A stretch of 42,638 nucleotides of DNA from Candidatus Woesearchaeota archaeon. GTDB lineage: Archaea > Nanobdellota > Nanobdellia > Pacearchaeales > GW2011-AR1. Each line of letters begins with the position of its first letter. Position 1 is the stretch's first letter. Below, one piece after another: positions 2,240 through 42,638 of the stretch. The position numbers were made by a program, and so were the translations under genes. The notes below the pieces were generated by a model. It saw nothing but the letters and a program-made list of their open reading frames with translations, was not told the DNA's origin and did not search any database. The stretch spans positions 1-42,638 of the forward strand of contig CAYYLH010000001.1 of the NCBI GenBank assembly GCA_964472575.1, written 5' to 3'.

Positions 2240-2241
2240 AA

Positions 2242-8267: not shown

Positions 8268-8341
8268 GAGCCTGTAACGCAGTCAGGTAGCGTGCCACTC
8301 TGATAAGGTGGAAGTCCCAGGTTCAAATCCTGGCAGGCTCA
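8268..8341 (+). tRNA. tRNA-Ile (anticodon GAU)
   Basis: Manual cloverleaf: acceptor GAGCCTG/CAGGCTC, D stem ACGC/GCGT, anticodon stem CCACT/GGTGG with loop CTGATAA, T arm CCAGG-TTCAAAT-CCTGG, discriminator A. 74 nt, no encoded CCA. Confidence 0.9.
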
Positions 8342-8435
8342 CTCATAACATTTAAAAAGCAATTTTTATACAGATTATTATGGAAAAAATAAACAAAGGG
8401 AAGTTGAACTTCAAGAAACCGCAGGTGTCTTAAGA

Positions 8436-9008
8436 ATGGTAAAAGGAATATTTCACTATTTAAGGCAAGCATGGAAGAAACCAGATAGCAAGACCTTAAA
8501 ACAAAGAATGATTGAATGGAGAAAAGGAAACACACTAATTAAAGTAGATAAACCTCTAAGACTAGACAAAGCAAGAGCTCTAGGTTATAAAGCAAAAAAA
8601 GGAGTAATAACTGTAAGAGTAAGAATAAAAAGAGGAGGACACAAAAAGTCTAGACCTAACAAAGGAAGAAGGTCAAAAAGAATTACAATAAGAAAAAATC
8701 TAAGAATGAATTATAAAGAAATAGCAGAACAAAGAGTTGCTAGAAAATTCAAAAACTTAGAAGTATTAAATTCATACTGGATTGGTAAAGATGGTGTAAA
8801 TTATTTCGATGAAGTTATTTTAATCGACCAATCTAAAAAAGAAATTCAATCAGATAAAGAGTATTCAAAACTAATCAAGTCTCCTAAGAAAAGAGTATTT
8901 AGAGGACTAACATCTTCTGGTAAAAAAGCAAGAGGACATAGACATAGAAAGTCAAAAGTTCCTAAAGTATATCCAAGTCTAAGAGCTAATAAAAGAAAAG
9001 GAAACTAA
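8436..9008 (+). CDS. rpl15e: 50S ribosomal protein L15e
   Basis: YLRQAWKKP...EWRK...RLDKARALGYKAKKGVITVRVRIKRGGHKKSRPNKGRRSKR is the typical L15e signature. Confidence 0.95.
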   Translation: MVKGIFHYLRQAWKKPDSKTLKQRMIEWRKGNTLIKVDKPLRLDKARALGYKAKKGVITVRVRIKRGGHKKSRPNKGRRSKRITIRKNLRMNYKEIAEQRVARKFKNLEVLNSYWIGKDGVNYFDEVILIDQSKKEIQSDKEYSKLIKSPKKRVFRGLTSSGKKARGHRHRKSKVPKVYPSLRANKRKGN

Positions 9009-9009
9009 G

Positions 9010-9228
9010 ATGAAAAAGAGACTGTATAGAGCTCCTGAATCAGAATCAATGATTGGAGGAGTGTGTGCTGGTATTGCAAATTATTTTGATATAGACCCTA
9101 CTTTAATAAGATTATTATGGGTTTTAGTTACATTCTTTAGTTTTATAGGAACAGGAATAATTGTTTATATAATTGCATGGATTATAATTCCAAGAAAAAA
9201 TAATAAAAAAATTAAAAAGAAAAATTAA
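9010..9228 (+). CDS. PspC-domain membrane protein
   Basis: LYRAPESESMIGGVCAGIANYFDIDPTLIRLLWVL followed by a TM helix. Confidence 0.8.
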   Translation: MKKRLYRAPESESMIGGVCAGIANYFDIDPTLIRLLWVLVTFFSFIGTGIIVYIIAWIIIPRKNNKKIKKKN

Positions 9229-9235
9229 ATTCTAA

Positions 9236-9565
9236 TTACAAGTGTTGGCTAATCCATTGCTTAACATCTTCTTCTGTCTTAACACCAATAAACTCATCTA
9301 CTACCTTACCATCCTTAAATAACTTAACAGCAGGTATAGACATAATTCCATATTCACTTGCTTTTTCTTGGTTTTGCTCAACATTCAGTTTAGCAATTAC
9401 AACCTTGTCTTTCAATTCATCACTATTACCTACTTTTTCCATAATAGGCTTTAGCATTTGACACGGTCCACACCAAGAAGCCCAGAAATCTACTACTACA
9501 GGCATTTCTTTGCTTTTTTCTATAACTTCTTTTTCAAAGCCAGAGTCAGTTGTATCTATTTCCAT
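9236..9565 (-). CDS. trxA: Thioredoxin
   Basis: WCGPC active site in a thioredoxin-fold context (VVVDFWASWCGPCQMLKP). The track start at 9574 is TTG; the ATG at 9565 sits about 27 nt from the TTTATAAA box. Confidence 0.9.
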   Translation of the reverse strand: MEIDTTDSGFEKEVIEKSKEMPVVVDFWASWCGPCQMLKPIMEKVGNSDELKDKVVIAKLNVEQNQEKASEYGIMSIPAVKLFKDGKVVDEFIGVKTEEDVKQWISQHL

Positions 9566-24679: not shown

Positions 24680-25750
24680 TCATGCAACTTCTTTTCCTTG
24701 ATTTTCACCAAGAGGAACTAGTAATGAACATAACTCACTCATACTCACAACCTCTAAAGTAATATTTCTATCACCAGAACCAGAATAAACAACCAACTTA
24801 TCACTATCACATCCCATCTTCAATCCAGCAGTAGGAAAAGCTATTCTTTTTTTAATCTCTCCTTCATCTAAAACATCCTGCTCACTAGGAATAAATAAAG
24901 GTTGTTTAGATTTACTAATTAGTTTAAATGTTTTAGGACATAACTCACAAAAGCTTCCTTGATAAAGAAAATCATTCCCTTTTCTTGAAACTCCATGATA
25001 TAATCCTAAAAACCTATTATCTACAAAAATAGGAATTCCTAATCCAACTTTCTCTTGTTCCCACTCTTCTGAAGGATTCATCACAACTCTCTCATCTAAT
25101 CTTTCTAAATAATCTCTCCAATAACCTTCATCTTTAAAATCATTTAAATTATCAGCAATAGCTACCTGAATTCCAGGCTCTAACCTATGCCACATCACCC
25201 ACTTACCACCCCGCCTCTCTACTACTGCATCCTTATCATGTAAATAACTCTTTTTCCCAGACATTTCATCTTCTTTCAAAATTCTCTCCCATCTCTCTTT
25301 ATAATACTCACTTCCAACAATCTCAACAGCCTGCTCTAGTGTAAACTGAGGCCCAATAACCCCTTTCTTTTCAACTCCTTTAAAATCCCTATCACTAACA
25401 GCTAAACACACTCTTGCTTTTTCACCATCATAACCAGCATAAGTAATATAAACCTCATCATCAACACCAGAAACACGAGCATCTTCACACCCCCTTGAAT
25501 CATACTCTTTATCAGGATATAATAAGTTATTTACAGTATTAACTAATTCAAAAGGATTTCTTAAAAAGCCATAATCAGTAATAGAATACTCTTTTCCTTG
25601 AAAAACTCTTCTAGACCTATATAAAAATACATTTTCTTCATCATCTCCTTTAGAATAAATTGTAGGATTTAAAACAGCTATTTCACCCTTACTTATATTT
25701 GGTTCTAACAACACCCTTCGCATTCGCGAATCAGGTTCATCTTCTTCCAT
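24680..25750 (-). CDS. GH130-like glycosidase/phosphorylase (DUF377-type beta-propeller)
   Basis: CEDARV, YITYAGYDG, HDKDAVV, WVMWHRL, LGLYHGV and LVVYSGSGD follow the order of GH130 conserved blocks. Confidence 0.65.
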   Translation of the reverse strand: MEEDEPDSRMRRVLLEPNISKGEIAVLNPTIYSKGDDEENVFLYRSRRVFQGKEYSITDYGFLRNPFELVNTVNNLLYPDKEYDSRGCEDARVSGVDDEVYITYAGYDGEKARVCLAVSDRDFKGVEKKGVIGPQFTLEQAVEIVGSEYYKERWERILKEDEMSGKKSYLHDKDAVVERRGGKWVMWHRLEPGIQVAIADNLNDFKDEGYWRDYLERLDERVVMNPSEEWEQEKVGLGIPIFVDNRFLGLYHGVSRKGNDFLYQGSFCELCPKTFKLISKSKQPLFIPSEQDVLDEGEIKKRIAFPTAGLKMGCDSDKLVVYSGSGDRNITLEVVSMSELCSLLVPLGENQGKEVA

Positions 25751-31258: not shown

Positions 31259-31693
31259 ATGTCAAACAAAAAAGGACAAGCAGCTATGGAATTCCTAATG
31301 ACTTATGGTTGGGCCATTCTTGCTGCTGTTATTGCTGTTGGTGCACTTTGGTGGTTAATGTCTAGCTCAGGTGGAACAGTAAGCTTTTGTAGTTTAAGTG
31401 CTCCACTATCTTGTGAAGAACAAACAGCTAATACTACATCAGTTATTGTAGTATTTAGAAATGGAGTTGGAGATTCAATTAATGTTACAAGTGTTAATAT
31501 GACTGGAGGATGTACTGCTATAACACCTAATGAAAATGTAGCAAATGGTGAAACATACACTGCTGTAGTAAGTTGTAGTGGATTAACTGTTGGAGATTCT
31601 GTACAAGAAGATCTAAGTGTTAAGTACATCAAATCAGGTGGAAGTTTACCACAAACATCAACAGGTACTGTATCTACAGAAGTAGTTGCTTAA
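31259..31693 (+). CDS. Archaeal type IV pilin (class III signal peptide, Q at +1; DUF361/Epd-like), likely major pilin
   Basis: MSNKKG|QAAMEFLMTYGWAILAAVIAVGALWW. The track start at 31094 is TTG in the promoter region; the ATG at 31259 has an SD. 4 Cys and 3 N-x-T sequons. Confidence 0.8.
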   Translation: MSNKKGQAAMEFLMTYGWAILAAVIAVGALWWLMSSSGGTVSFCSLSAPLSCEEQTANTTSVIVVFRNGVGDSINVTSVNMTGGCTAITPNENVANGETYTAVVSCSGLTVGDSVQEDLSVKYIKSGGSLPQTSTGTVSTEVVA

Positions 31694-31712
31694 TTTTTTA
31701 TTTTTGTCAAAT

Positions 31713-31752
31713 GCAGAACTCTTGTTCTGCTGGCATTTTCCTTTTATTTTTA
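31713..31752 (+). terminator. Hairpin GCAGAAC-tctt-GTTCTGC followed by a T-rich tract; pilin terminator
   Basis: 7-bp stem at 31713-31730, then ttttccttttattttt. Begins 20 nt after the pilin stop. Confidence 0.65.
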
Positions 31753-31818
31753 ATTAATTTTTTATTAATTAGTGTTAACTCTATATTTAAATAAAAATAA
31801 AACAGCTTTCTCCACAAA

Positions 31819-31860
31819 CTTAATTAATTAATCGCAATTCAAATCTTGGCTAAGTATATC
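31819..31860 (+). repeat. Dispersed intergenic repeat, A module
   Basis: cttaattaattaatcgcaattcaaatcttggctaagtatatc. Includes TTAATTAATTAA, which places stop codons in all six frames. Confidence 0.75.
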
Positions 31861-31929
31861 AAGGTTATAATGTTAAACTTATACTATTTAAGTTTTCTTT
31901 TGAAACACCAATTTTCTTTTTCTAAAAAT

Positions 31930-32754
31930 CTAAATATCCAACTCACCAGAATAAGCCTTAGTAGAAATCTCAACACCAGACTTACCAATCTTAAAAGGAA
32001 ATATCTCTCTTGAATGCTCTGTTCCCCTCATCTTAATAATCTCTAAAAATCTCTCTCTTTCCTTTCCAGTTCTAACAAAATATAACACAATAATACTATC
32101 AGATTCAAACTCTAATGCCTTAGAACTAGCCTTACCATCCTTAGTAGGGTCTTCTTCATAAGTTAGTAAAGAAGTAGTATTCCACTTTCTCAACATTCCA
32201 AATAACTCTAAACCAGCCTCTCTCTTCTTCAAATCATCATCAAATAACAATTCAAAAGAAGTAATAGAATCAATAACAATTCTAGAAATCTTTTCTTTTA
32301 ATACAATACTCTCAATAATACCCCCACCCTCTTCAAGCATAGTCTTAACCTTCTCAGGTGTATACTCTAAAAACACAAAATTACCTTTTTTCTCTTCTTT
32401 TTCCAAATCAAAACCAAACTGCTTCATATTAGTATAAAAAACCTCTTTCTTTTCTTCAAAAGTAATATACAAACACTTTTCATTTTTCTTTAATCCATCA
32501 ACTAAAAACTCAATAGCAAAAATACTCTTACCACTTCCAGAACTACCTACAATCAAATTAATAGAATCCTTTTCAAATCCTCCTTGAATCAACTTATCAA
32601 AATTCTTAACACCAGTAGCAACCCTTTCAACCTTTCCAATCTTAGTCTTCTTCTTAGTTAAAATTTCTTCTAACTTATCTTCTTTCTTTCCAATCTTCTT
32701 AATAGCTTTTTTAGAATTCTTTTTAACACTCTTTTTAACCTTCTTTTTTACCAT
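31930..32754 (-). CDS. KaiC/RecA-superfamily ATPase (FlaH/ArlH-like) with K-rich N-terminus
   Basis: GVKNFDKLIQGGFEKDSINLIVGSSGSGKSIFAIEFL (Walker A), Walker B-like RIVIDSI, and KMRGTEHS. Confidence 0.8.
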   Translation of the reverse strand: MVKKKVKKSVKKNSKKAIKKIGKKEDKLEEILTKKKTKIGKVERVATGVKNFDKLIQGGFEKDSINLIVGSSGSGKSIFAIEFLVDGLKKNEKCLYITFEEKKEVFYTNMKQFGFDLEKEEKKGNFVFLEYTPEKVKTMLEEGGGIIESIVLKEKISRIVIDSITSFELLFDDDLKKREAGLELFGMLRKWNTTSLLTYEEDPTKDGKASSKALEFESDSIIVLYFVRTGKERERFLEIIKMRGTEHSREIFPFKIGKSGVEISTKAYSGELDI

Positions 32755-32792
32755 TACTAAATATAAAATAAAGAGCTATAAAAACCTTGCTA

Positions 32793-33707
32793 CTAAAAAA
32801 ATCCAGACATAAAATTCTGCAACACAACCCTGGTTAAAAAATAAACAATCATACTAATCACAACTAAGAAAGGCAAATACTTCAACCCTTGCTTCTCCTC
32901 ACCCTTAGCAACAAGACCTAAAACCAAAGAAGCAAGAACATCAATAGCCAAGATAAATACAACACTAAACCAAACTACAAAACTAACACTAATTCCAACA
33001 CCAGTCATAGAAAAAGGTAAATTAATAGCAGCATTAGACATATCAGGAACACCAACTAACAAGTCAGTCATAACACCAACTAAAACACCTGATAAAGAAA
33101 ATAACAAAGGAGCACCAGCAGCAACAGCTACAAAAATAAATATAACATACATTAAAACACTAGAAGCAGCCTTCTTCTCAACAAATCCTCTCTCCCTCAT
33201 ACCAGAAGCAGTCTGTTCAATTAAAACAGCAAGATTACCTCCAGCCTCAATACCAGAAATAATTAATAAAATAGTCTTTTCAATCTTATTACTTCCAATT
33301 CTATCAGCCATATCTAATAATGCCTCTTTAATCTTTCTACCAGTAGCAATATCCTTTCCAGTCTCTGTAATCTCTTTATCTAATGGGTCAAACTCCTTTC
33401 TAGCACTCAACAACATAGCTCTATCAATAGTCATACCAGCTCTAAGATTACTAGCCATTAATTGTAAAAAATCAGGAAAAACCTCTTCCATCTTACTAAT
33501 CCTAGCACTCTCTTTCAAAGCAGCACTAAAATACAAATACAACCAAGTCAAAACTATCAAACCTATAAAAATAACTAAACCTAAAATCCAATTACCACTA
33601 AAAAATATCAAAACACTACTAATCACAATACCAATTAAACCTGCAAGAATCAACCACTTCTTATACTTACCTTTCTCTTCTCTCTTTCTTCTTGATTTCA
33701 ACTTCAT
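32793..33707 (-). CDS. Type IV filament platform protein, single T2SSF domain (TadC/FlaJ C-half-like)
   Basis: FPDFLQLMASNLRAGMTIDRAMLLSA...ALLDMADRIGSNKIEKTILLIISGIEAGGNLAVLIEQTA flanked by TM helices. ATGA overlap with the upstream gene. Confidence 0.75.
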   Translation of the reverse strand: MKLKSRRKREEKGKYKKWLILAGLIGIVISSVLIFFSGNWILGLVIFIGLIVLTWLYLYFSAALKESARISKMEEVFPDFLQLMASNLRAGMTIDRAMLLSARKEFDPLDKEITETGKDIATGRKIKEALLDMADRIGSNKIEKTILLIISGIEAGGNLAVLIEQTASGMRERGFVEKKAASSVLMYVIFIFVAVAAGAPLLFSLSGVLVGVMTDLLVGVPDMSNAAINLPFSMTGVGISVSFVVWFSVVFILAIDVLASLVLGLVAKGEEKQGLKYLPFLVVISMIVYFLTRVVLQNFMSGFF

Positions 33708-34585
33708 AATAGTGATGGTCTCCTTGATTTAATTAAACCTAAGAACATAACCTGCATAAGCATAACCATAATAAACAAACCAATAAATACAAACTGAATC
33801 ATCCTACCTTCTAATCCTAATATAGAAGATAAAATAGTAATAAATGTAATAGCTAAAGCAGGAAGAATAACAGATATAAGCATATAAAACATAATCAAAG
33901 GATTCAATTTATTTCCATAATTCTGAATCTGAATCAACTGCTCTTCATGTAAAGCATGAATACTATCACTAATAACAATAGCCATATCACTACCTGCATT
34001 CATACCATTACTAATCTGCCACAAAGTCCTTCTAAAAAATACAGAAGGATTATTCTCACCTAAATCCTCTAATACCTCTTTCTCAGACTCACCAGCATTA
34101 ATTCTTTTAACAGCTTTTTTAAACTCAACACTTAACTGACCATAATCAGAAGATGAAATATTAACCATAACACTAAACAAAGGCACACCTGAATTAACCT
34201 GAATTAACATATCTTCTAAAGCAGGTAATAAATTCCTCTCAATATCTTTCTGTCTTCTAGAAACATAAATCCTAGGATAAACCAACTGAGAAAAAACAAT
34301 AAATCCAGAAAATAAAATAGCAATTACTAATCCAAATAAATAAAAAAATCCAACCCTTAAAAAAGCAAGAACAGTAGTAGAAAAAACTAATAATCCTAAA
34401 AAACTAATAAAAAAACTCCTCATTACAATAGAAAGATACTCCTCTCTTGTCAAAGAGATATTACTATTCTTCAGATTCTCTCCTAACTTGGTCTTAGACT
34501 TATGTTTAATTCTTTTTAAAAAATAATCACTCTTTCTTCTAAGCTTTTTATAATCTGAAAAAGTAAACGGAATCTTAAATTTCAT
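33704..34585 (-). CDS. Type IV filament platform protein, single T2SSF domain (TadB/FlaJ N-half-like)
   Basis: LPALEDMLIQVNSGVPLFSVMVNISSS...EVLEDLGENNPSVFFRRTLWQISNGMNAGSD with TM helices. TAATG overlap with the ATPase stop. Confidence 0.75.
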   Translation of the reverse strand: MKFKIPFTFSDYKKLRRKSDYFLKRIKHKSKTKLGENLKNSNISLTREEYLSIVMRSFFISFLGLLVFSTTVLAFLRVGFFYLFGLVIAILFSGFIVFSQLVYPRIYVSRRQKDIERNLLPALEDMLIQVNSGVPLFSVMVNISSSDYGQLSVEFKKAVKRINAGESEKEVLEDLGENNPSVFFRRTLWQISNGMNAGSDMAIVISDSIHALHEEQLIQIQNYGNKLNPLIMFYMLISVILPALAITFITILSSILGLEGRMIQFVFIGLFIMVMLMQVMFLGLIKSRRPSLL

Positions 34586-36336
34586 TATTCCCTCCCTAAT
34601 AACTCTTTTATATTATTTCCTTTCATCAACTTTCTTAATCTTTCAATACCAGTATAATAAACATTCATAATCTTTCCAAAATCATTAAAATCTCGAATCT
34701 TATTCTTAATCATCCACTCTAAAACAGATTTCTTTTCTTCTAAATTCTTTTTTAACTCTATTTCAGCTAAACCAGTATGTCTTTGTAAATCTTCAAAAAA
34801 TCTAGATGATTCAGCATGTCTTGCAATTCTATCTTCCTCAGGAACCCACCTATATAAAATATTAGCACTAGCACTATCATCTCCTGCTTCAAATTCTGCA
34901 ATCTGAAATACCCTTCTTATACCTCTTCTTCTATCTCTAAACATTACAACATTCAAATTAACAGCTCTTAACAAATTAGCAGGAATATTCAAAGGAGGAT
35001 TTGTCAACCTAGAAATAGTCTCAGCAGCAGAGTCAGCATGAAGAGTAGCATAAACACTATGACCAGTATGCATAGCTTCAAACAAAACCATTGCTTCTTG
35101 TTGTCTTCTCATCTCACCTAAGATAATTCTATCAGGCCTCATTCTTAAAGAATTAACTAATAAATCTAACATTGAAACCTCTCCTTTTCCTTCTGGATTA
35201 GGACTTCTAGTAACTAAAGGAGTCCAATATAAAAAATCAGGTAACATTAATTCTCTTGTATCTTCAACACTAACAATCCTATGATTAGGAGGAATAAAAG
35301 GCATACATGCATTTAACAATACAGTCTTTCCAGAAGCAGTTCCACCAGAAATAATAACATTCATCTCATACTCAATAGCTAACCATAATAAAACAGCTGA
35401 ATCAATATCACAAGTCTTATTTCCAATCAAATCAATAATAGTATATGGATCTCTTGCAAACTTTCTAATTGTAATTGTATTTCCTTTAGTAGAAACAGGA
35501 TATAAAATAGCATTAACCCTATCACCTGTAACTAAATGAGCATCTAACAAAGGAGTTAAAACAGTAATCTGTCTTCCTACTCTTCTAGCAACAATATTAG
35601 AATAATTAACAATCTCTTCTTCTTTTTTAATCCTTAGATTAGTTCTAATCCATCCAAACTTTTTATGATAAACTCTTATTGGTTCTTTAGAAGATGGAAT
35701 AACTACTTCTTCTAGTTCAGGGTCATTAACTAAAAACTCTATCTCTCCTAATCCTAACATATCTTGCATTAACTTTCCAACAAGATATTTCTTCATTTTT
35801 TCATCTAAATGAGGAAGCTTTTTATTCAAAAGTTTATTTGTCTCGCTCATAAACCTCTTTTTAATATCATTAAAAGCATGAGGGTCTAAAATCTCTTTCA
35901 TACTAACAGTAGTCATACTAACTAACTCAGCCCTAATATCTGATAATAAACACGCAGTTGCAATACCTATTTCAGGAACTAATAAATTATAACTAATCCC
36001 TGATTTATCCTTAACAACCTCTACTTTAATCACAGCACCATCTCTTTCCAAAGTACAAGTAGATAAAACTCCGTGAGGCAGATGTTTATGTTTCTTTTTA
36101 TTCTCTTTAATAGCCTTAGCATTAACAGCCTTATTAATATCAGATTTCATATCCTTACTAACTACAAAAGGCTTAGGCTTTGCTTTAACTATTCTAATCT
36201 CACTTCTTTGATTTTTTCTTTTTTCCTTTTTTCTTGTCTGTTTTTTGTCTCTTGCTCTTTTGTTTGTTGCCTTTCTTTTCTTTGTCTTCTTGCTTGTTGT
36301 TTTGTGTTTTTTGTTTTGTTTTATTTTCTTTTTCAT
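34585..36336 (-). CDS. Type IV filament assembly ATPase (FlaI/VirB11/TadA-type, T2SSE family); start uncertain
   Basis: Walker A ISGGTASGKT, DRIILGEMRRQQEA, and His box HTGHSVYATLHA. The first ~62 aa are polybasic and overlap the upstream ORF; an alternative ATG lies at 36150 (MKSDINKAV). Confidence 0.9.
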   Translation of the reverse strand: MKKKIKQNKKHKTTSKKTKKRKATNKRARDKKQTRKKEKRKNQRSEIRIVKAKPKPFVVSKDMKSDINKAVNAKAIKENKKKHKHLPHGVLSTCTLERDGAVIKVEVVKDKSGISYNLLVPEIGIATACLLSDIRAELVSMTTVSMKEILDPHAFNDIKKRFMSETNKLLNKKLPHLDEKMKKYLVGKLMQDMLGLGEIEFLVNDPELEEVVIPSSKEPIRVYHKKFGWIRTNLRIKKEEEIVNYSNIVARRVGRQITVLTPLLDAHLVTGDRVNAILYPVSTKGNTITIRKFARDPYTIIDLIGNKTCDIDSAVLLWLAIEYEMNVIISGGTASGKTVLLNACMPFIPPNHRIVSVEDTRELMLPDFLYWTPLVTRSPNPEGKGEVSMLDLLVNSLRMRPDRIILGEMRRQQEAMVLFEAMHTGHSVYATLHADSAAETISRLTNPPLNIPANLLRAVNLNVVMFRDRRRGIRRVFQIAEFEAGDDSASANILYRWVPEEDRIARHAESSRFFEDLQRHTGLAEIELKKNLEEKKSVLEWMIKNKIRDFNDFGKIMNVYYTGIERLRKLMKGNNIKELLGRE

Positions 36337-36931
36337 CTACCTCTTTTTTACCTCCTTTTTTATTTAAACTATCTCCTTCATCACAACTCTTTTCATTTTT
36401 ATCTTCTTCACCTTTCTCATTTTTATGTTTTTCTTTTAAAGTTAAAACAGGTTCTCCAAATCCAGGATAATCAATCATAGCAAGATTACTAGACTCTAAA
36501 ATTCCTGCCCACTCCATAGCTAAATCTTTAGAGATTTTAAATTTCTTTTCAATTGTACTAATCTTTATCTTTTTAGTTTGTTTTAAAATCTCATACAAAG
36601 TATCTATATCAGTAGTTGCATGTTTTTGAATCTTTTCAAAATCAATCCCAACCAATTCATTTTTTTTATTTTTAACACCCTTATCTTTAAAATACACAAT
36701 AAATAAAGCTAGTAATAATAAAATCCACTCAGCAATAATCAATCCCTTAGATAAAGGAGAAAGACTATTCTTAGCATTAATAATTACATCTTTAATAGAA
36801 TTTCCAGTCAAACCATTACTAAAACTAAATCTCACACCAAACCTATAAGCATACAATCCAGTACTAACTAAAAATAAAAAGAATACAATTAAGAAAACTC
36901 TAAAAAAAACTGGTTTTTCCTCTTTTACCAT
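36200..36931 (-). CDS. Membrane-anchored winged-helix-like protein with K/E-rich tail
   Basis: Two TM helices (FFRVFLIVFFLFLVSTGLYAY; IIAEWILLLLALFIVYF), then a wHTH-like TLYEILKQTKKIKISTIEKKFKISKDLAMEWAGILESSNLAMIDY. First gene of the minus-strand pilus operon. Confidence 0.55.
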   Translation of the reverse strand: MVKEEKPVFFRVFLIVFFLFLVSTGLYAYRFGVRFSFSNGLTGNSIKDVIINAKNSLSPLSKGLIIAEWILLLLALFIVYFKDKGVKNKKNELVGIDFEKIQKHATTDIDTLYEILKQTKKIKISTIEKKFKISKDLAMEWAGILESSNLAMIDYPGFGEPVLTLKEKHKNEKGEEDKNEKSCDEGDSLNKKGGKKEVDEKENKTKQKTQNNKQEDKEKKGNKQKSKRQKTDKKKGKKKKSKK

Positions 36932-36981
36932 ATTATATAAAAATGTTTATATACATTCCTAAATAACTATATATTGAGGAT

Positions 36982-36989
36982 TTTATAAA
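36982..36989 (+). promoter_or_regulatory. TATA box (TTTATAAA) for the plus-strand pilin-like operon, in the 74-bp divergent intergenic region
   Basis: Its centre is about 20 nt upstream of the ATG at 37006. Confidence 0.4.
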
Positions 36990-37005
36990 CCTTATTAAAA
37001 AAGAG

Positions 37006-37428
37006 ATGAAACAGAAAAACAAAGCACAAATTGGAATGGAATATCTTATTGTAGTTGGTTTTGTAACCTTTATTATAATAGGAATAATGGGGCTTGCAAT
37101 GGTCTATACAGGAGTAATAAAAGATAGAATTAGAAGCAACAAAATCAACTCATTTGCAGACAAAATAATCTCTACATCAGAATCAGTCTACTATAAAGGA
37201 AGTCCATCAAAAGCAACAATAGAAACCTATCTACCTGAAAATGTAAACCAAATAACAATACAAGATAATAGTTTAGTAATTAATAGTTCTACTAGTTCTG
37301 GAGATAACCTAGTTGCATTTGAAAGTAATGTTCCTATTCAATTACAAGGAGAAATAAATCCAAATCCAGGGGTAAAGAATATTCTTATAACAGCAAATGA
37401 AAACACTATCACACTCTCACAAACATAA
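37006..37428 (+). CDS. Pilin-like protein (class III signal peptide, Q at +1)
   Basis: MKQKNKA|QIGMEYLIVVGFVTFIIIGIMGLAMV. Confidence 0.75.
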   Translation: MKQKNKAQIGMEYLIVVGFVTFIIIGIMGLAMVYTGVIKDRIRSNKINSFADKIISTSESVYYKGSPSKATIETYLPENVNQITIQDNSLVINSSTSSGDNLVAFESNVPIQLQGEINPNPGVKNILITANENTITLSQT

Positions 37429-37822
37429 AAAAGCACAAGCAGCTATTGAATTTTTAATTATAACAGGTTTTGCTTTATTCTTTTTTGCCACATTCCTAAT
37501 TACTATTCAAGCTTCAAACTCTGAAAAAACACAAGAAAAACAAGCACTACTAGTAAAGAATCTAGCTAAATCAATACAAGACGAACTAACACTAGCACAA
37601 GAAGCAAGTAATGGATATCAAAGAACATTTACACTGCCTGAAAAATTAGGAAGTTTAGAATATACAGCACAAGTAATAGAACAATCAGTCTATATAACTG
37701 CTCAAGATGAAAAATACGCAATCTCACTTCCAGCTCCTAGAATACAAGGACAACTAAACAAACCAGGAGACAATACAATCAAAAAAATAAATTCAACAAT
37801 CTATCTAAATGAAAACCCATAA
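37397..37822 (+). CDS. Pilin-like protein (class III signal peptide, Q at +1)
   Basis: ...HKHKKA|QAAIEFLIITGFALFFFATFLI. 32-nt overlap with the previous gene. Confidence 0.7.
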   Translation: MKTLSHSHKHKKAQAAIEFLIITGFALFFFATFLITIQASNSEKTQEKQALLVKNLAKSIQDELTLAQEASNGYQRTFTLPEKLGSLEYTAQVIEQSVYITAQDEKYAISLPAPRIQGQLNKPGDNTIKKINSTIYLNENP

Positions 37823-38312
37823 TAAATCAAACAAAGCACAAACATGGGGGATAGACCTTGTAATAGCAATGACAATATTCTCAATAGCAATTATTATCTT
37901 TTTTTTATATTCAATTAATTTTGCAGGTTATGAAACAACAGAATTCAAATCACTAGACTATGATGCAGAAATAATAGCAGACTCTATACTATCTCCAGGA
38001 AGCCCTGAAAACTGGACAACAGATAGTGTAGTAATTCCAGGAATTCTAACAAACAATCAAATCAATCAAACAAAACTAGATAATCTTAAAACACTAACAT
38101 CTACACAAGAAAACTATCAAACAACTAGATTAAAATTCTCTACTAAGTATGATTTTTACTTTTTTTTAAAAGACTCTCCTAATAATGGAATAGGAAAACC
38201 AAATACAGACCCAGAAACAATAGCAGATGAAAAAGAAAATCTAGTTAAGATTACAAGATTTACAATCTATGAAAATAAACCTAAAACAGTCTACCTATAC
38301 CTATGGGATTAG
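37809..38312 (+). CDS. Pilin-like protein (class III signal peptide, Q at +1)
   Basis: MKTHNKSNKA|QTWGIDLVIAMTIFSIAIIIFFL. 14-nt overlap with the previous gene. Confidence 0.65.
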   Translation: MKTHNKSNKAQTWGIDLVIAMTIFSIAIIIFFLYSINFAGYETTEFKSLDYDAEIIADSILSPGSPENWTTDSVVIPGILTNNQINQTKLDNLKTLTSTQENYQTTRLKFSTKYDFYFFLKDSPNNGIGKPNTDPETIADEKENLVKITRFTIYENKPKTVYLYLWD

Positions 38313-38331
38313 ATTAAAAATTATAACTAAA

Positions 38332-40959
38332 ATGAAAATATTAAAAAATAAAAAAGCAATATTCTTTTCAACAGATGCACTAGTAGCACTCTTTATAATC
38401 ATGATGACACTACTAGTTGTATATATCTCTATAAATGCAGGACAAAAAAATACTCAACTAGAATCAGATACACTAAAAGTAATGTCAGAACTAAAAATAA
38501 ATAATATTGATAATTCTTATGTCCAATCACTAATTAGTCAAGGAGAAATAACAAACCCAAATAACTCAATACTAGAACAAATAGGAGAGTTTTATATTAA
38601 TGAATCAATAGAATCTCAAACAATGGCTAGTGCATTAGCAGAACAAATACTAGATGAACTAGACACAAATGAAAATATAGGAATATGGTATGGAACTGAT
38701 TTAATTGCTTCTAAAAACTCAACACCAATAGATAATGCACAAGAAATAATTCTATCATCACAAACAATTACAGGACTGCAAAAAGGAGAAAGTGCTAAAG
38801 GATACTCATCAAGAGCATATCTATCAAAAGCAGATAATGTACAATACTACTATTTTGGAGGTTATATTGGTGATGGAAATATCTCAATGCAAATACAAGC
38901 ACCAGGAGAAGTTATAGATATGGAATTTGAAATCGCAATAAATAATGACTATGATTTATATATTAATAATCAATTCTCAGGACACTATGAAAAATCACAA
39001 GATGAATACACACCTCAAACCTATTTACCAGAATATGAATCTAACTTTCAAACAGGAACTAATCTAATTGAATTTAAATCTTCTAATAACCTATACATAG
39101 CAGGAGGATATCTAAAACTAACATTTAATTCTTCATCAGATATAAGTTCAAATAAAAAATACAATTTTATGGGAATAGATGGCTTAATAAATATCTATGA
39201 TGGAATTTATATTCCAGAAGAACTAACATCTATGAATGTCTTTCTAAACTACACCTCTAATGTAAATATGTTTCTAAATATTGCAAATAAAACAATATTT
39301 AATGAATCATCAGAAACACAAACACAAGAAACAATTACTAATTCAGAAATCCAATCAAAACTAAACTATGAAGATTTAACAGGAAAAACAGTTCCAATTA
39401 GATTAGGTTTAGAACAAGTTCAACAACAAGGAACAGGAGGAGGTATTGCAGATATTGTATTTGTAATTGACTCAACAGGAAGTATGGGTGATGAAATTCA
39501 AGATGTATATACAATTGCAGAAGACTTTGCAGACGAACTAGTAACACAAGATATTGATTATAGGTTAGGAATTATTGAATTTAAAGACTATCCTAAGAGT
39601 AGCTGTGGTAATACAGGATGTGATTATGGTTGGGGTGGTTGGTCTTGTTGTTTATCTAATGATTGTTCAATCCCTTCTGTATGTGAATCTTGTGGAGGAA
39701 CCTATAATGAAGATAATGCAGATTTTCCTTCTAAAATTCATTTATTTAATTCAAACGAATTTACAACCTCTTCTATTGATTTTAAAACTAAAATAAATAC
39801 TCTTACAGCATCTGGTGGAGCAGACTGGCCAGAGTCACATCTAACAGCTATTAATGATTCTATATATCTAAATTGGAGAGAGAATTCTAAAAAAGTAATA
39901 ATTGTTTTAACAGATGCACAGCCTCATGCAAAAGATTGTTATATTTATGATTCAGATACTTATGAATCTTGTTATGAAGGCCCAGAATATATCCAAGATG
40001 TAATTGAAGATTTAGTAACTAATGATATAACTTCTTATTATGTTTCAAAAGACACAACAGGAAGTTCAGGAGGCCTTTGTGATAACAGACCTATGGCAGA
40101 CAATATGACAAATGAAACAGGAGGAAAATTCTATGCTTATACAGAATCTCAAGGTGTTCAAGATATAATAATAGACATAGGAAGAGAAATAGTAGAAGTA
40201 ACCTATGCAGAACAAACAGCAACATCAATAGGAGATATCTATTCTTATCTATCACCAACATCTTATATAGAACTAAACTATAATAATCCAACAAACCCCT
40301 ATGGATTAGTAATAACCCTAGAAAGTGAAAACTTCAATTCTTCTGGAAGTCTAAATCTAACACTTCCAGAAAATGCAACATTTTTAGAAGCAACAACTAC
40401 TTCTTATTCAGGCCCAAGATGGACAAAAACCCTTACAATTAATAATCAAGAAGAATTTAATATAGAAGCTTATGGAAATGATTACATAGAACTAGGAGAC
40501 CCTTTTAATATACAAATACCTAACTCAACAGCGATACAAAAATCAAGTATAATTCAATTACTAACAGGAACCTCTCCTGCTGACAGCTATCCAATCTCAA
40601 CAGCTAGTAAGATAATATATAAAATAATAAAATCATTCCAAGCTTACTCACCTGTTGTATCAAAAGCACAAGGATGTGAATGGAACATCTCATTAGAAAA
40701 TAATGAAATAATACAAATTAACACACCTTCAACATATACAGGAAATAATAAATGTTCTTTCACTCCTGAAAATATAATCTATGATGTTAATGATGCAATA
40801 CAAACATCTGTATATAACTTACTAGAAAAATTAGATTTTAATAACAATAATAAAATTGACTTTTCAATCTCATCTCAAAACCTTCAGTTTGACTCAACAG
40901 AACTTTCAGGCATTCCTTATACTTATGAAACAGAAATACAAGTAAGAATATGGAGATGA
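38332..40959 (+). CDS. Large pilin-like protein with vWA/MIDAS domain carrying a Cys-rich insert; putative tip adhesin
   Basis: The ATG at 38332 gives MKILKNKKAIFFSTDALVALFIIMMTLLVVYI. MIDAS DSTGS (39469-39483), ASGGADWPES and IIVLTDAQPH. Insert SSCGNTGCDYGWGGWSCCLSNDCSIPSVCESCGG (~39598-39700). Many N-x-S/T sequons. Confidence 0.8.
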   Translation: MKILKNKKAIFFSTDALVALFIIMMTLLVVYISINAGQKNTQLESDTLKVMSELKINNIDNSYVQSLISQGEITNPNNSILEQIGEFYINESIESQTMASALAEQILDELDTNENIGIWYGTDLIASKNSTPIDNAQEIILSSQTITGLQKGESAKGYSSRAYLSKADNVQYYYFGGYIGDGNISMQIQAPGEVIDMEFEIAINNDYDLYINNQFSGHYEKSQDEYTPQTYLPEYESNFQTGTNLIEFKSSNNLYIAGGYLKLTFNSSSDISSNKKYNFMGIDGLINIYDGIYIPEELTSMNVFLNYTSNVNMFLNIANKTIFNESSETQTQETITNSEIQSKLNYEDLTGKTVPIRLGLEQVQQQGTGGGIADIVFVIDSTGSMGDEIQDVYTIAEDFADELVTQDIDYRLGIIEFKDYPKSSCGNTGCDYGWGGWSCCLSNDCSIPSVCESCGGTYNEDNADFPSKIHLFNSNEFTTSSIDFKTKINTLTASGGADWPESHLTAINDSIYLNWRENSKKVIIVLTDAQPHAKDCYIYDSDTYESCYEGPEYIQDVIEDLVTNDITSYYVSKDTTGSSGGLCDNRPMADNMTNETGGKFYAYTESQGVQDIIIDIGREIVEVTYAEQTATSIGDIYSYLSPTSYIELNYNNPTNPYGLVITLESENFNSSGSLNLTLPENATFLEATTTSYSGPRWTKTLTINNQEEFNIEAYGNDYIELGDPFNIQIPNSTAIQKSSIIQLLTGTSPADSYPISTASKIIYKIIKSFQAYSPVVSKAQGCEWNISLENNEIIQINTPSTYTGNNKCSFTPENIIYDVNDAIQTSVYNLLEKLDFNNNNKIDFSISSQNLQFDSTELSGIPYTYETEIQVRIWR

Positions 40960-41099
40960 TTAAAATAATAAAACTAAACAAAAAAGGATAAAAAAGAGAT
41001 AAAAATAACAATATAAAAAATAAATAATAAGACTGCTAAGAAATAAGTAATACCCTTGCACAAGTCAACGCAATCCAGGCGAAGCATTAATTAAATAAA

Positions 41100-42011
41100 A
41101 TGAAAATAAATAAAAAATCAAAAAAAGCACAAATATTCACTGTCCTGACTATAGCAATCATAGCCTTATTCTTTATCTCATATGAAGTCTACTCAATACT
41201 ACAAACACAATCAAATCTAAAAGACAGGGTGCTCTCAATAGATAGTTTTGTATTCTCCTTAGAACAAGACCTAAATAGAAAACTCTATGCATTTGGATTT
41301 AGAACAATATTTTTAGCAGAAGACTATCTAACCCAAACAGGAGGTTATATTCAAAACTTCTCTGAACTAACACAAGAGGCCTTTTTTAATGGAACAATTA
41401 ATAATCAAGAATCACAAATCCTAGCAGGAGTGTATTATGATGATTTAATACAAACAATAAATCAAAAATCAGAAAAGATAAATGCTAATGTAAATATAAC
41501 TAATACAGAAATTAAAGTCTATCAAACAAATCCTTGGCAAATTACATTTGAATTCTCATTCAACCTATTAGTAGAAGATAAATCCCAACTAGCTAAATGG
41601 GATAAACAAGAACTCATTATAACTAACATTCCCATCACAGGATTTGAAGACCCTTTATACACAATTAATACAAACTCTTTAGTAACCAATACAATCAATC
41701 AAACAATCTACACACTTCCTACTTCAAATACAGACACACTACTAAATCACACAGAACAAGGATTATACATAGCATCTACATCAGCTCCTAACTTTATACA
41801 AAGACTAGAAGGAAATTTAACACCAAATTCAAATGGAATAACCTCCTTAGTTTACATTCCAAGTCTAACACAACAAGGAATAACATCACAAGATAAATCT
41901 ATTCAGGACTATATTTACTTCTCAGATGAAAATCCAACATCTTCACAAGTATCAGGCATGCCTTCTTGGTTCTATTTAGATGATGATAGTGTTAGTAATT
42001 ATGTTAGTTAA
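41100..42011 (+). CDS. Pilin-like protein (class III signal peptide, Q at +1), 303 aa
   Basis: MKINKKSKKA|QIFTVLTIAIIALFFISYEV. Sequon-rich (NFS, NGT, NIT, NQT, NHT, NLT). Confidence 0.65.
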   Translation: MKINKKSKKAQIFTVLTIAIIALFFISYEVYSILQTQSNLKDRVLSIDSFVFSLEQDLNRKLYAFGFRTIFLAEDYLTQTGGYIQNFSELTQEAFFNGTINNQESQILAGVYYDDLIQTINQKSEKINANVNITNTEIKVYQTNPWQITFEFSFNLLVEDKSQLAKWDKQELIITNIPITGFEDPLYTINTNSLVTNTINQTIYTLPTSNTDTLLNHTEQGLYIASTSAPNFIQRLEGNLTPNSNGITSLVYIPSLTQQGITSQDKSIQDYIYFSDENPTSSQVSGMPSWFYLDDDSVSNYVS

Positions 42012-42278: not shown

Positions 42279-42638
42279 TTACTTCTTCCTTCTCCTTCCA
42301 CTCCTCTTCCTCTTATAAAATAAATAAACTAAAAATCCAAGAATTACTAAAACTAAAATAATTATAATTATAATAAGGATATTAAAAACAAAACAAGAAA
42401 TCCTAAGATATGCAAAATCTCCACCAAAAAACCAAAAAGAAAAATTAAAGATTCTTGCTAAATAACCTATTAAAGAAATTAAAATAAGAGAACATCCAAC
42501 AACTAGTAATAAATTCCACCAATCAATTCTATCTAAAAAGTCTTTTCTAATTCTTTTTATAATCTTCTTAAGTTTAATCTTACTTATAATCTTCTTAAGT
42601 TTAATCTTACTTATAATCTTCTTAAGTTTAATCTTACT
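42279..42638 (-). CDS. Partial hypothetical membrane protein (5' end outside the window) with 9-aa tandem repeats
   Basis: Open minus-strand frame from the window edge to the stop at 42279-42281 (...YKRKRSGRRRKK*). Hydrophobic segments. The N-terminal visible part is SKIKLKKII x3. Confidence 0.4.
   Translation of the reverse strand, partial: SKIKLKKIISKIKLKKIISKIKLKKIIKRIRKDFLDRIDWWNLLLVVGCSLILISLIGYLARIFNFSFWFFGGDFAYLRISCFVFNILIIIIIILVLVILGFLVYLFYKRKRSGRRRKK
42561..42638. repeat. 27-bp tandem repeat aatcttcttaagtttaatcttacttat, 2 full copies plus 1 truncated by the window end
   Basis: Identical units at 42561-42587, 42588-42614 and 42615-42638. The period is a multiple of 3. Confidence 0.9.

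Follow-up and report, generated by a model that had tools for sequence, protein, structure and literature searches.

What kind of machine is encoded by the genes at positions 31259-42011 of this window (the whole stretch of 42,638 nucleotides that was analyzed), and what use might a DPANN archaeon make of it? In general terms the first question has a firm answer: the eleven genes (Table 1) make up a real type IV filament assembly locus. Five on the minus strand encode a 2-TM winged-helix protein, a GspE/VirB11-type ATPase, two single-domain T2SSF platform halves (F1 and F2), and a single-domain KaiC ATPase; six on the plus strand encode five class-III-signal proteins (p1-p5) and a stand-alone pilin (PilA). 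Beyond that, sequences and modeled structures point to the machinery of an archaeal type IV pilus, in a form peculiar to one large DPANN lineage (Pacearchaeota, Woesearchaeota, and 'Nanoarchaeota'), a reading to which we assign a probability of roughly 0.7. Its product is most likely an adhesive filament with a large exchangeable binding protein at the tip, and its function would be attachment to a host or to a surface. The type of machine is known, but the DPANN lineage-specific version is uncharacterized, including a conserved 2-TM winged-helix accessory protein that has not been described.

Table 1. Features of the filament locus (a slash marks the predicted cleavage site)
Feature	Positions	Strand	Size	Signal or supporting evidence
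PilA-like candidate major pilin	31259..31693	+	144 aa	MSNKKG/QAAMEF
Single-domain KaiC-family ATPase	31930..32754	-	274 aa	PF06745, E 1e-54
Platform half 2 (F2)	32793..33707	-	304 aa	one PF00482 T2SSF domain, E 7e-16
Platform half 1 (F1)	33704..34585	-	293 aa	one PF00482 T2SSF domain, E 3e-14
GspE/VirB11-family assembly ATPase	34585..36336	-		PF00437, E 5e-35; GGTASGKT
2-TM winged-helix accessory protein	36200..36931	-		structure model and synteny
Divergent intergenic region	36932..37005		74 bp	A/T-rich TATA-like boxes facing both operons
p1 minor pilin	37006..37428	+	140 aa	MKQKNKA/QIGMEYL
p2 minor pilin	37397..37822	+	141 aa	...KHKKA/QAAIEF
p3 minor pilin	37809..38312	+	167 aa	...KSNKA/QTWGID, acidic residue at +6
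p4 modular pilin, candidate tip adhesin	38332..40959	+	875 aa	class III signal MKILKNKKA/IFFSTD
p5 pilin-like protein	41100..42011	+	303 aa	MKINKKSKKA/QIFTVL, helix without acidic residue

The original prediction had placed all of these genes where they were found, in a setting it took to be archaeal, and the host is indeed a DPANN archaeon. The overlaps it described, TAATG between ATPase and F1 and ATGA between F1 and F2, are both real, and Pfam profile matches bear out its ATPase, its two single T2SSF proteins, and its KaiC. The stand-alone pilin gene has the predicted AGGAGG Shine-Dalgarno sequence, 6 nt upstream, and downstream the predicted terminator, seen as T-runs and a hairpin (-14.4 kcal/mol, z -4.3); it also has a TATA-like box of its own. 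In the divergent intergenic region, which may act as a promoter region for both operons, TTTTATAAA lies 17-25 nt 5' of the p1 ATG, and TATATAA-type boxes precede the accessory gene. To call the locus 'complete-looking' was an overstatement, because a prepilin peptidase is missing from the window. That absence had itself been predicted, along with the absence of archaellum accessory genes: a profile scan of the window's ORFs of at least 90 aa (a few overlapped ORFs excluded) detected neither Peptidase_A24 nor archaellum accessory families. Scanning some 80 related loci for a motif likewise revealed no prepilin peptidase, a weak negative.

Synteny of the gene set extends to about 80 other species, far beyond what chance would give. 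Among 34 fully sampled (fully flanked) loci from other species of Pacearchaeota, Woesearchaeota, and 'Nanoarchaeota', all eleven families occur together in 28, in two arrangements, which indicates a lineage-wide apparatus. The core order accessory-ATPase-F1-F2-kaiC is preserved wherever the flanks allow; F2 is present in all 34 loci, KaiC in 33, and PilA lies adjacent in 30. The p1 gene always adjoins the accessory gene, divergently oriented, p5 always follows p4, and the class III signals of the six proteins are conserved. The locus is thus shared by many DPANN archaea that are tiny and probably depend on a host, although a 2020 preprint (10.1101/2020.05.14.094862) considered type IV pilus components missing in DPANN, which counts against our reading.

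The accessory protein has no match in Pfam or NCBIfam, yet 777 clusters (50% identity) match it at E <= 1e-3. It consists of a first TM segment, an external loop with G(I/L)(S/T)G, a second TM segment, a cytoplasmic winged helix, and a variable K/E-rich tail, with invariant residues T107, D110, W141, and L145. The predicted winged helix in this membrane protein was recovered by AF2 at residues 108-165 (pLDDT 83-88, topology H-b-H-H-b-b), and the Foldseek matches are all wHTH proteins, although the alignment behind the model was shallow, with 8 sequences, the mean pLDDT is 62, and the Foldseek E-values are weak (at least 4e-3). Perhaps the protein is no structural or adaptor part but regulates transcription of the divergent pilin operon while tethered to the membrane, like ArnR or ToxR. 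MarR and ArsR regulators top the Foldseek list, the gene is located at the divergent promoter region, and the archaellin genes of Sulfolobus are controlled by membrane-bound HTH regulators (PMC4858521). This alternative deserves a hearing but is doubtful. Over 47 relatives, the mean net charge is -2.0 for helix 3, which is acidic, and -0.5 for the domain, which is close to neutral; none of the invariant residues is basic, and protein-binding winged helices, e.g., ESCRT-II, are among the good structural matches. Moreover, the gene consistently stands immediately 5' of the ATPase gene (in 78/81 loci) and in the same orientation, like an operon partner.

The start of the ATPase is ambiguous: an ATG at 36150, as in the public call, gives a protein of 521 aa, and a start at 36336 gives one of 583 aa, with a K-rich extension and a 137-nt overlap with the upstream gene. 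K-rich disordered N-termini are frequent among its relatives, and identity to those in DPANN is 62-87%. Of PDB proteins, afGspE (2OAP) scores 231 bits over residues 113-504, FlaI 196, and CpaF 172; the match to afGspE, whose clade-2 label is taken from the supplement of PMC4858521, is end-to-end and better than the other two. The C-terminus is PilB3_C-like (22 bits). As predicted, the platform is divided between two genes, F1 and F2, which map to the N- and C-terminal halves of a full-length, FlaJ/TadC-type platform (positions 6-248 and 258-555, respectively, of the 555 in the ArlJ model); a BLASTP comparison of the halves found no significant similarity (E 0.88). The predicted second ATPase, of RecA/KaiC type, is encoded by the last gene of the core operon and has a K-rich N-terminal tail. 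Walker A GSSGSGKS and TFEE can be read directly in its sequence, TIGR03880 (KaiC_arch_3) gives 156 bits as against 63 for the ArlH model (cut-off 215), and its best PDB matches are KaiC proteins, so it is closer to KaiC proper than to ArlH/FlaH. KaiC has been associated with archaeal type IV pili (PMC4858521).

The AF2 model of PilA (pLDDT 91) has a helix (residues 5-36) followed by a 9-strand beta-sandwich, and its top full-length Foldseek matches are the archaeal type IV pilins 8TIB, 8Q30, 6W8U, and 8FK7. As modeled, therefore, PilA has the archaeal type IV pilin fold, in keeping with the earlier reading of the N-terminal helix as pilin alpha-1. Its N-terminus, QAAMEFLMTYGWAIL, is invariant among 51 aligned relatives. 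Context and conservation make PilA the candidate major pilin and the other signal-bearing proteins candidate minor pilins. In each of p1-p5, a K-rich N-terminal stretch does lead through A into a hydrophobic helix, with Q after the site in four of the five (p1, p2, p3, and p5). The predicted class III signal with Q at +1 holds family-wide in p1 (78/80 members with a detected site combine Q at +1 with E at +5), p2 (the same residues in 47/48), and p3 (Q at +1 in 49/53 and D at +6 in 49/53). The Q does not hold in the p5 family, where -1 is G in 44/47, +1 is mostly I or M, and neither +5 nor +6 is E or D; the Q of the window's p5 is therefore atypical. PF04021 (Class_IIIsignal/DUF361) matches 25/81 members of the p1 family (best E 3e-5), DUF7266 matches 27 of the pooled p2 and p3 set (best E 2e-8; E 0.003 for the window's p2 itself), and DUF7287 matches 3 (p3; best E 1.5e-6). 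No match to p5 was found in Pfam or NCBIfam.

Do these features place the locus strictly within the Epd-like clade (System 1, the sister group of bacterial Tad)? In that case PilA would be a minor subunit or belong to another filament, and a short Flp/EpdE-like protein from some other locus would be the true major pilin. The label 'Epd/Tad-like' in the original prediction is borne out by the division of the platform, by Q at +1, and by the presence of a second ATPase. Separate genes for the FlaJ N- and C-halves are a hallmark of Epd and Tad, for which the split (fission) state was described (Denise et al. 2019, PMC6668835). As in the Epd pilus of Methanococcus maripaludis (System 1/clade 1), the two platform genes adjoin the ATPase gene, an extra RecA-type ATPase is present, and there are several Q-at-+1 pilins with DUF361-type signals; alike too are the proposed role in adhesion and the multi-gene locus with adhesin-like members. 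Furthermore, System 1 has been reported in DPANN (10.64898/2026.04.22.720090). The label is not supported by the major pilin, the assembly ATPase, or the missing peptidase. The major pilins of Epd and Tad are short proteins with no globular domain (PMC6668835; 10.64898/2026.04.22.720090), EpdE having no head, whereas PilA, adjacent in most of the sampled loci, has a beta-sandwich head and no short pilin ORF was found in the window. The assembly ATPase is nearest to clade-2 afGspE, with a PilB3_C-type end, the second ATPase resembles KaiC, not FlaH, the minor pilins match DUF7266 and DUF7287, EppA is absent from the locus, and Epd has no described counterpart of the 2-TM winged-helix gene. Since two tadC genes also occur in many clade-2 loci (Makarova 2016), the split is not diagnostic. 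We consider strict membership unlikely.

Euryarchaeal clade 2/System 2 (Haloferax PilB3/PilC3 with PilA1-6, the PilB4 locus, and A. fulgidus afGspE) resembles the locus in its ATPase over the full length, in the PilB3_C-type end, in stand-alone PilA-type major pilin genes, in minor pilins related to DUF7266/DUF7287, in association with KaiC, and in a large adhesin within the locus. Archaeal MinD, another clade-2 trait, is encoded elsewhere in the window. The DPANN locus differs in its host, in its fixed set of eleven genes with the winged-helix protein, and in its split platform; the platform is single in System 2 according to the 2026 preprint but spread over two genes in many clade-2 loci according to Makarova 2016. 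The bacterial Tad/Flp pilus shares the TadB/TadC-like split platform, a CpaF/TadA-related ATPase, a second P-loop ATPase, and pseudopilins including a vWA protein (TadG), but the locus lacks a secretin, TadZ/CpaE, a Flp-type short pilin, and TadV, and its filament subunit is globular.

The case for adhesion turns on p4, which most likely starts at 38332, not 38269, and whose family has D at +6 in 52/54 members. The original prediction overlooked its vWA module (about 370-625; VWA_4 E 1e-10, VWA E 8e-8), which carries a Cys-rich insert at 424-470 and lies between conserved N- and C-domains (about 31-365 and 626-875). VWA is matched by 30/50 relatives, and a minority match Laminin_G_3, sialidase-like CBM, or BNR families. 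The metal-binding MIDAS D-x-S/T-x-S is retained in 38-39 of the 42 family members with a vWA domain; 8 members, of about 625 aa, have none. A modular pilin with a conserved metal site and modules that vary among relatives fits a tip adhesin. There are precedents in the modular vWA pilin PilB of S. sanguinis (PMC8179133) and in the vWA-bearing TadG and PilY1 (PMC4858521). As in PilB and PilY1/PilC, a pilin N-terminus is joined to a vWA/MIDAS module, and just as PilY1 is encoded with FimU-PilVWX, p4 has four small minor pilins in its operon. Outside the vWA fold, however, p4 has no sequence relation to these proteins, it has conserved N- and C-terminal scaffolds in addition, and its relatives may lack vWA or also match lectin, CBM, or BNR families. 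It also counts against an adhesin that vWA proteins may instead be regulatory or anchoring (ArnB, TadG).

How might the parts work together? A prepilin peptidase from elsewhere in the genome would cleave each precursor after G/A, and the hexameric ATPase, docked on the F1+F2 heterodimer, would drive PilA out of the membrane into the filament. The small proteins p1, p2, p3, and p5 may form an initiation or tip complex; in bacteria, the tip-most minor pilins lack the acidic helix residue, as does p5. This complex would display p4, whose metal-dependent vWA module would bind a ligand on a host cell or surface. By analogy, KaiC may modulate the motor, as ArlH does ArlI, and the winged-helix protein may tether or regulate cytoplasmic parts at the membrane. 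The 'cell-cell attachment' proposed earlier is plausible, and pilus-driven episymbiosis in CPR bacteria provides a precedent (PMC9894109).

Alternatively, the filament may not be mainly an adhesin but an uptake or secretion device of a metabolically reduced cell, either a pilus that takes up DNA or nutrients or a short structure like a pseudopilus or bindosome. DPANN archaea rely on external building blocks, the machinery is generic, and the functions of type IV pili overlap. The 2026 preprint proposes functionalized TFF in substrate scavenging, and the BasE model does match, but its 139 bits are far under the cut-off of 1000 and also under the FlaI and TadA scores. Given that neither DNA-uptake genes nor substrate-binding proteins bearing a class III signal turned up in the window, and that the conserved large pilin bears adhesin-typical vWA, lectin, CBM, or BNR modules, uptake or secretion seems improbable. 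An archaellum, the swimming motor, is scarcely credible, as predicted: the FlaI, FlaJ, and ArlH models are the best NCBIfam matches, JGI calls relatives 'FlaI', and the three superfamilies of the ArlH-ArlI-ArlJ core (KaiC/RecA ATPase, secretion ATPase, and platform) are encoded together, but scores are far under the curated equivalog cut-offs (291 vs 550, 40 vs 400-550, 63 vs 215), the genes are arranged in another order, the platform is divided, afGspE outscores FlaI, the six signal-bearing proteins have no archaellin domain, and neither ArlF/G/X/C/D/E nor stator genes were found among the window's scanned ORFs. Some relatives of PilA go by the JGI name 'UPF0333 family'.

The genes at 31259-42011 (see the table) constitute, with a probability of roughly nine in ten, a type IV pilus assembly locus. 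An assembly ATPase, a T2SSF platform, and class III signals in combination with a pilin fold, all of them criteria for archaeal type IV pili, are present. The ORF map of the region agrees with the genes, coordinates and overlaps described in the original prediction: the TAATG and ATGA overlaps lie in the minus-strand core operon, the five divergent plus-strand proteins (p1 to p5) begin with a K-rich stretch followed by A and a hydrophobic helix, and the stand-alone gene of the candidate major pilin, pilA, has both its AGGAGG Shine-Dalgarno sequence and a hairpin terminator (-14.4 kcal/mol, z -4.3) that lies with T-runs 3' of the stop codon. The G+C content of the window is about 30%.

Genes of the pilus locus, with coordinates in the window
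Gene or product	Coordinates	Strand	Features
accessory, 243-aa membrane protein	36200-36931	-	no Pfam or NCBIfam match
secretion ATPase	34585-36150/36336	-	Walker A GGTASGKT; PF00437, E 5e-35
T2SSF protein (F1)	33704-34585	-	PF00482, E 3e-14, one domain
T2SSF protein (F2)	32793-33707	-	PF00482, E 7e-16, one domain
single-domain KaiC ATPase	31930-32754	-	GSSGSGKS and TFEE motif; PF06745, E 1e-54
p1	37006-37428	+	K-rich N-terminus, A, ~20 hydrophobic residues
p2	37397-37822	+	K-rich N-terminus, A, ~20 hydrophobic residues
p3	37809-38312	+	K-rich N-terminus, A, ~20 hydrophobic residues
p4	38332-40959 (second ATG as start)	+	K-rich N-terminus, A, ~20 hydrophobic residues
p5	41100-42011	+	K-rich N-terminus, A, ~20 hydrophobic residues
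pilA (stand-alone)	31259-31693	+	TATA-like box ~50 nt upstream, AGGAGG 6 nt upstream

An A-rich stretch of 137 nt at 36200-36336 is read in two frames: one encodes the accessory protein's K/E-rich tail, the other what may be a K-rich extension at the N-terminus of the ATPase. The longer ATPase start may be real, since long, disordered, K-rich N-termini (up to ~250 aa) are frequent among ATPase relatives. The N-terminus of KaiC is also a K-rich tail, of about 40 aa.

The locus is widely conserved. Relatives of the ATPase number in the thousands at 62-87% identity, and every named one comes from a Pacearchaeota, Woesearchaeota or 'Nanoarchaeota' metagenome-assembled genome. An iterated HMM was built for each window protein (n=11) and applied to 80 loci from distinct GTDB species, all from metagenome-assembled genomes and none cultured. 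The core order accessory-ATPase-F1-F2-kaiC is preserved in all loci where the flanks permit a judgment, and p1 and p2 invariably adjoin the accessory gene in divergent orientation. p3, p4 and p5 change position together, extending the p1-p2 operon in 8 loci (as in the window) and following kaiC in 22. Among the 34 fully flanked loci, pilA is adjacent in 30 and all eleven families are present in 28; when the other ORFs of the loci were all clustered, no twelfth linked pilus gene emerged. The ATPase has a median identity of 68% to the window, the pilins and the accessory protein 35-45%, the pattern expected of a conserved motor with fast-evolving surface parts.

Several related loci have an extra small protein beside p5 or pilA (L018:4696-5265, L030:4582-5178, L070:918-1544, L032:10446-11135, L037:11719-12354, L041:17455-18051 and L067:17454-18068), no copy of which is seen in the window. 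It is built from an N-terminal anchor and, after a linker of acidic low-complexity sequence, a C-terminal domain with the motif C-x-L-x-R-P-G-N-L-P-D-I-x-C, the domain being detected by the PilA profile. In the GCA_028718805.1 locus (L002/L004), the accessory protein is split into 2-TM and winged-helix ORFs (8401-8928 and 9107-9562), and three unrelated metabolic and regulatory genes intervene between p3 and p4.

According to motif statistics across the related loci, the class III signal motif is conserved in six families. Of the PilA, p1 and p2 members in which a site was detected, at least 89% have the form [K/R][G/A/S]↓Q-x-x-x-E-[F/Y] (51/57 for PilA, 78/80 for p1 and 47/48 for p2). The p3 family has Q at +1 with D at +6 (49/53), and the p4 family likewise has D at +6 (52/54). 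The p5 family has no acidic residue, and its +1 position is usually I or M, so that the Q of the window's p5 is atypical. The pilin proteins of the window themselves fall below Pfam thresholds, and the signal is seen at the level of families: Class_IIIsignal (PF04021, the DUF361 motif) is matched by 25 of 81 p1 members (best E 3e-5), and in the pooled p2 and p3 set DUF7266 is matched by 27 members (best E 2e-8) and DUF7287 by three (best E 1.5e-6). The last two families are presumably of haloarchaeal origin; a literature search found no mention of either. Several PilA relatives carry the JGI label 'UPF0333 family'. When the whole window was scanned for class-III-like N-termini, the annotated genes found to begin in this way were PilA and p1-p4 alone (the filter missed p5, whose signal was read directly). 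The remaining hits fell on internal starts within both platform genes, on a gene for an M48 peptidase and on short ORFs without annotation; none was a short Flp-like pilin.

The N-terminus of PilA, QAAMEFLMTYGWAIL, is without variation in 51 aligned relatives. In the AlphaFold2 model built on that alignment (pLDDT 91, pTM 0.72), a helix of 32 residues leads into a beta-sandwich of nine strands. Over its full length, Foldseek matches the model to type IV pilins of archaea: the tri-pilus of S. islandicus (8TIB, E 3e-4), Aap of S. acidocaldarius (8Q30) and the pili of Pyrobaculum (6W8U, 8FK7). The high rmsd of these matches is due to the angle between helix and head; the head alone is similar to many Ig-like domains. 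Given the fold of the PilA model and its full-length matches to archaeal pilins, what the N-terminal helices represent is the alpha-1 helix of pilins and not an ordinary TM anchor. The original prediction had named ordinary TM anchors as a finding that would refute it, and on this point it is not refuted.

Some 20 prepilins of the PilA type have a leader of 60-90 aa before the RKRKG↓QAAMEF site (related proteins P0135-P0137, P0141, P0145, P0170, P0176, P0180, P0189, P0191, P0197, P0199-P0201, P0204, P0214, P0224 and P0225; L071:19795-20907(+)). This leader, composed of TM1, an S-G-I-T-G-F-V-V motif and TM2, is similar in layout to the N-terminal half of the accessory protein, the 2-TM winged-helix protein of the window. 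Many of these prepilins also have long C-terminal modules (Laminin_G_3, TSP3-like, PD40).

Processing of such signals calls for a prepilin peptidase. As the original prediction held, none is visible in the window, nor are archaellum accessory genes: the scan of window ORFs with a length of 90 aa or more (a few overlapped ORFs being left out) yielded neither a class III signal peptidase of the Peptidase_A24 type nor any archaellum accessory family, and no polytopic membrane protein was found among the Pfam-less window ORFs read directly. A rough two-motif scan of 80 loci, a weak test, found none either. The peptidase must act in trans, or else the system cannot work.

The secretion machinery was predicted to have a split platform, and it does: two genes, each with one PF00482 domain, make up the N- and C-halves of the full-length model. 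F1 aligns to positions 6-248 and F2 to 258-555 of the 555-position ArlJ model, and together they cover the FlaJ model end to end. Compared by BLASTP, the two give E 0.88; they are evidently not recent duplicates. Fission of the platform into two genes has been described for Epd and Tad (Denise et al., PMC6668835). PDB sequence searches with the two halves returned nothing useful. Against PDB, the ATPase has its best match, an end-to-end one, in afGspE (2OAP, over residues 113-504) at 231 bits, with 196 for FlaI and 172 for CpaF, no clade-1 protein being among the comparators; afGspE has been labelled a typical clade-2/arCOG01817 protein (Makarova et al., PMC4858521). The C-terminus of the ATPase matches PilB3_C at 22.1 bits, against a cut-off of 27, and this domain is precomputed in many close relatives. 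For placement of the ATPase and platform, these indirect signs point to clade 2.

The locus mixes traits of two kinds of system. Some are Epd-like (split platform, Q at +1) and others clade-2-like (ATPase, globular PilA, pilins related to DUF7266/7287, KaiC). The interpretation of the original prediction, with its Epd/Tad label, is partly supported. As in Epd/Tad (System 1), the platform is divided between two single-T2SSF genes, and Q is found at +1. However, the major pilin of System 1 is short and lacks a globular domain, whereas mature PilA has 138 aa and the nine-strand sandwich, though a short pilin may yet be encoded outside the window; and the Epd-like clade has a dedicated EppA in the cluster, whereas none was found here (window ORF scan and weak motif scan of ~80 loci). 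For the secondary ATPase, which in System 1 is of the FlaH (arCOG04148) or TadZ type, the locus has a KaiC-family protein that scores 156 bits with KaiC_arch_3, 215 with the best PDB KaiC and 63 with ArlH (cut-off 215), and by these scores is apparently nearer to true KaiC than to ArlH. Clade 2 (System 2) shares with the locus a stand-alone PilA-type major pilin, encoded here by pilA with its own signals, and minor pilin families, matched here by DUF7266 and DUF7287 in relatives of p2 and p3. An archaellum is contradicted by the scanned window ORFs, among which no archaellin, ArlF/G, ArlX, ArlCDE or stator genes were found, and by the FlaI, FlaJ and ArlH models, which score far below their cut-offs. 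A bacterial Tad pilus would have Flp pilin, TadV, TadZ/CpaE and RcpA secretin, none of which was found in the window; Flp_Fap gives a marginal match (E 0.004) in one p2 relative. A bindosome is unsupported by NCBIfam model scores and by the window scan for class-III-like N-termini.

The kind of system is already known. Archaeal type IV pilus diversity, including two tadC genes in clades 1 and 2, association with KaiC and vWA partners, was catalogued by Makarova et al. 2016 (PMC4858521), with DPANN represented by N. equitans and Nst1 only; divergent DPANN islands were shown by Makarova et al. 2019 (PMC6393860); and a 2026 preprint (10.64898/2026.04.22.720090) reports in DPANN both System 1 (Epd-type, split platform) and a subsystem 4A with two platform genes. 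Our literature search found no description of the lineage's fixed 11-gene architecture, the 2-TM winged-helix family, the module variation of p4, or the mixture of Epd-like and clade-2-like traits.

The accessory protein has two membrane helices, TM1 and TM2, and between them an external loop in which a G(I/L)(S/T)G motif is conserved; then follow a conserved cytoplasmic domain of about 60 residues and an unconserved K/E-rich tail. Four residues, T107, D110, W141 and L145, do not vary among 47 relatives. An exhaustive phmmer search returned 777 clusters at 50% identity (E ≤ 1e-3), and among the matches listed 150/150 align over most of the query; a PDB sequence search with its profile gave nothing useful. 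Homologues for modeling came from a search with a fused accessory and PilA alignment, and since most of the matches were pilins, the model (mean pLDDT 62) rests on only 8 sequences. Residues 108-165, at pLDDT 83-88, show the H-b-H-H-b-b order of a winged helix, and each of the Foldseek matches listed is a winged-helix protein or domain, at weak E values of 4e-3 to 5e-2 (MarR, ArsR, Z-alpha, ESCRT-II, TFE and ribosomal proteins). Such a fold might belong to a DNA-binding regulator. This is the less favoured reading, because helix 3 is net acidic (mean -2.0), which speaks more for a protein-binding adaptor. No accessory-ATPase Rosetta-stone fusion was found among long ATPases, whose long N-termini are K-rich and disordered. 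The adaptor candidate may be related to the 2-TM leader of some PilA-type prepilins, which would make for an unusual prepilin leader. As a common module, however, the two did not pass: all that hhalign could align was the G-I-T/S-G-F motif, 7 residues long (probability 66%), which does not establish homology.

The 875-aa p4 contains a vWA domain (VWA_4, E 1e-10; VWA, E 8e-8) that the original prediction overlooked. By profile against 50 relatives, it has two conserved domains, the N-domain (~31-365) and the C-domain (626-875), and between them the vWA module (~370-625), whose Cys-rich insert at 424-470 is specific to the window. Of the 42 members possessing the module, 38-39 retain the MIDAS motif D-x-S/T-x-S; 8 members of ~625 aa lack the module, and members of 1000-1170 aa have additional sequence. 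Pfam finds VWA in 30/50 members and elsewhere Laminin_G_3 (3), a sialidase-like CBM (6) and BNR repeats (5). Since long C-terminal modules are also found on one p2 relative (L039) and several PilA relatives, modular pilins are a theme of the lineage. The S. sanguinis adhesin-pilin PilB has the same design, in which a binding module that can be exchanged is attached to the N-terminus of a pilin (PMC8179133), and p4 is reminiscent of TadG and PilY1, which also bear vWA (PMC4858521). A PDB sequence search with p4 gave nothing useful.

The full model, an adhesive pilus with p4 as tip adhesin, is likely. It is conceivable, if rather doubtful, that DPANN of the Pacearchaeota/Woesearchaeota type have one dedicated 11-gene pilus in which p4, through vWA, lectin, CBM or BNR modules, determines host specificity at the tip and the 2-TM winged-helix protein is an unrecognised core component. 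A type IV pilus role is proven in CPR episymbionts; the DPANN locus is a parallel. One preprint (10.1101/2020.05.14.094862) used pili to exclude DPANN cells in cryo-TEM, stating that DPANN genomes are without type IV pilus parts. The locus is not a new category of system but a solid, testable lead on DPANN host attachment: its conserved synteny, tip-adhesin candidate and identifiable major pilin (predicted mature N-terminus pyroGlu-AAMEFLMTYGWAIL) give cryo-ET, immunolabelling, metaproteomics and host-range prediction something concrete to aim at. The locus is also relevant to how split platforms (Epd, Tad) evolved; here such a platform occurs together with a PilA-type pilin that is globular and an ATPase that resembles clade 2.

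The rest of the window contains archaeal informational genes, including those for TBP, MCM, eIF-1A, eIF-2 beta, L15e and S19e, as well as FtsZ. An archaeal MinD ATPase (TIGR01969, 233.6 bits, cut-off 201.75) is encoded at 2236-3006 (+), preceded by four small soluble ORFs without Pfam match (501-2239); at least six related loci have a MinD-like gene no more than 10 kb away from the pilus genes. Use of stand-alone MinD/FleN has been predicted for clade 1 and 2 pili (Makarova 2016, PMC4858521). The otherwise housekeeping flank also contains a protein with an Mrr-type restriction endonuclease domain (3264-3854, -), a GH130 mannoside phosphorylase-like protein (24680-25750, -) and a single tRNA-Ile(GAT) (8268-8342, +). 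A perfect 27-nt tandem repeat (42557-42638, 3.0 copies) continues past the right end of the window and codes for KIKLKKIIS repeats; these belong to a partial ORF for a membrane protein on the minus strand and lie near its N-terminal (upstream) part.
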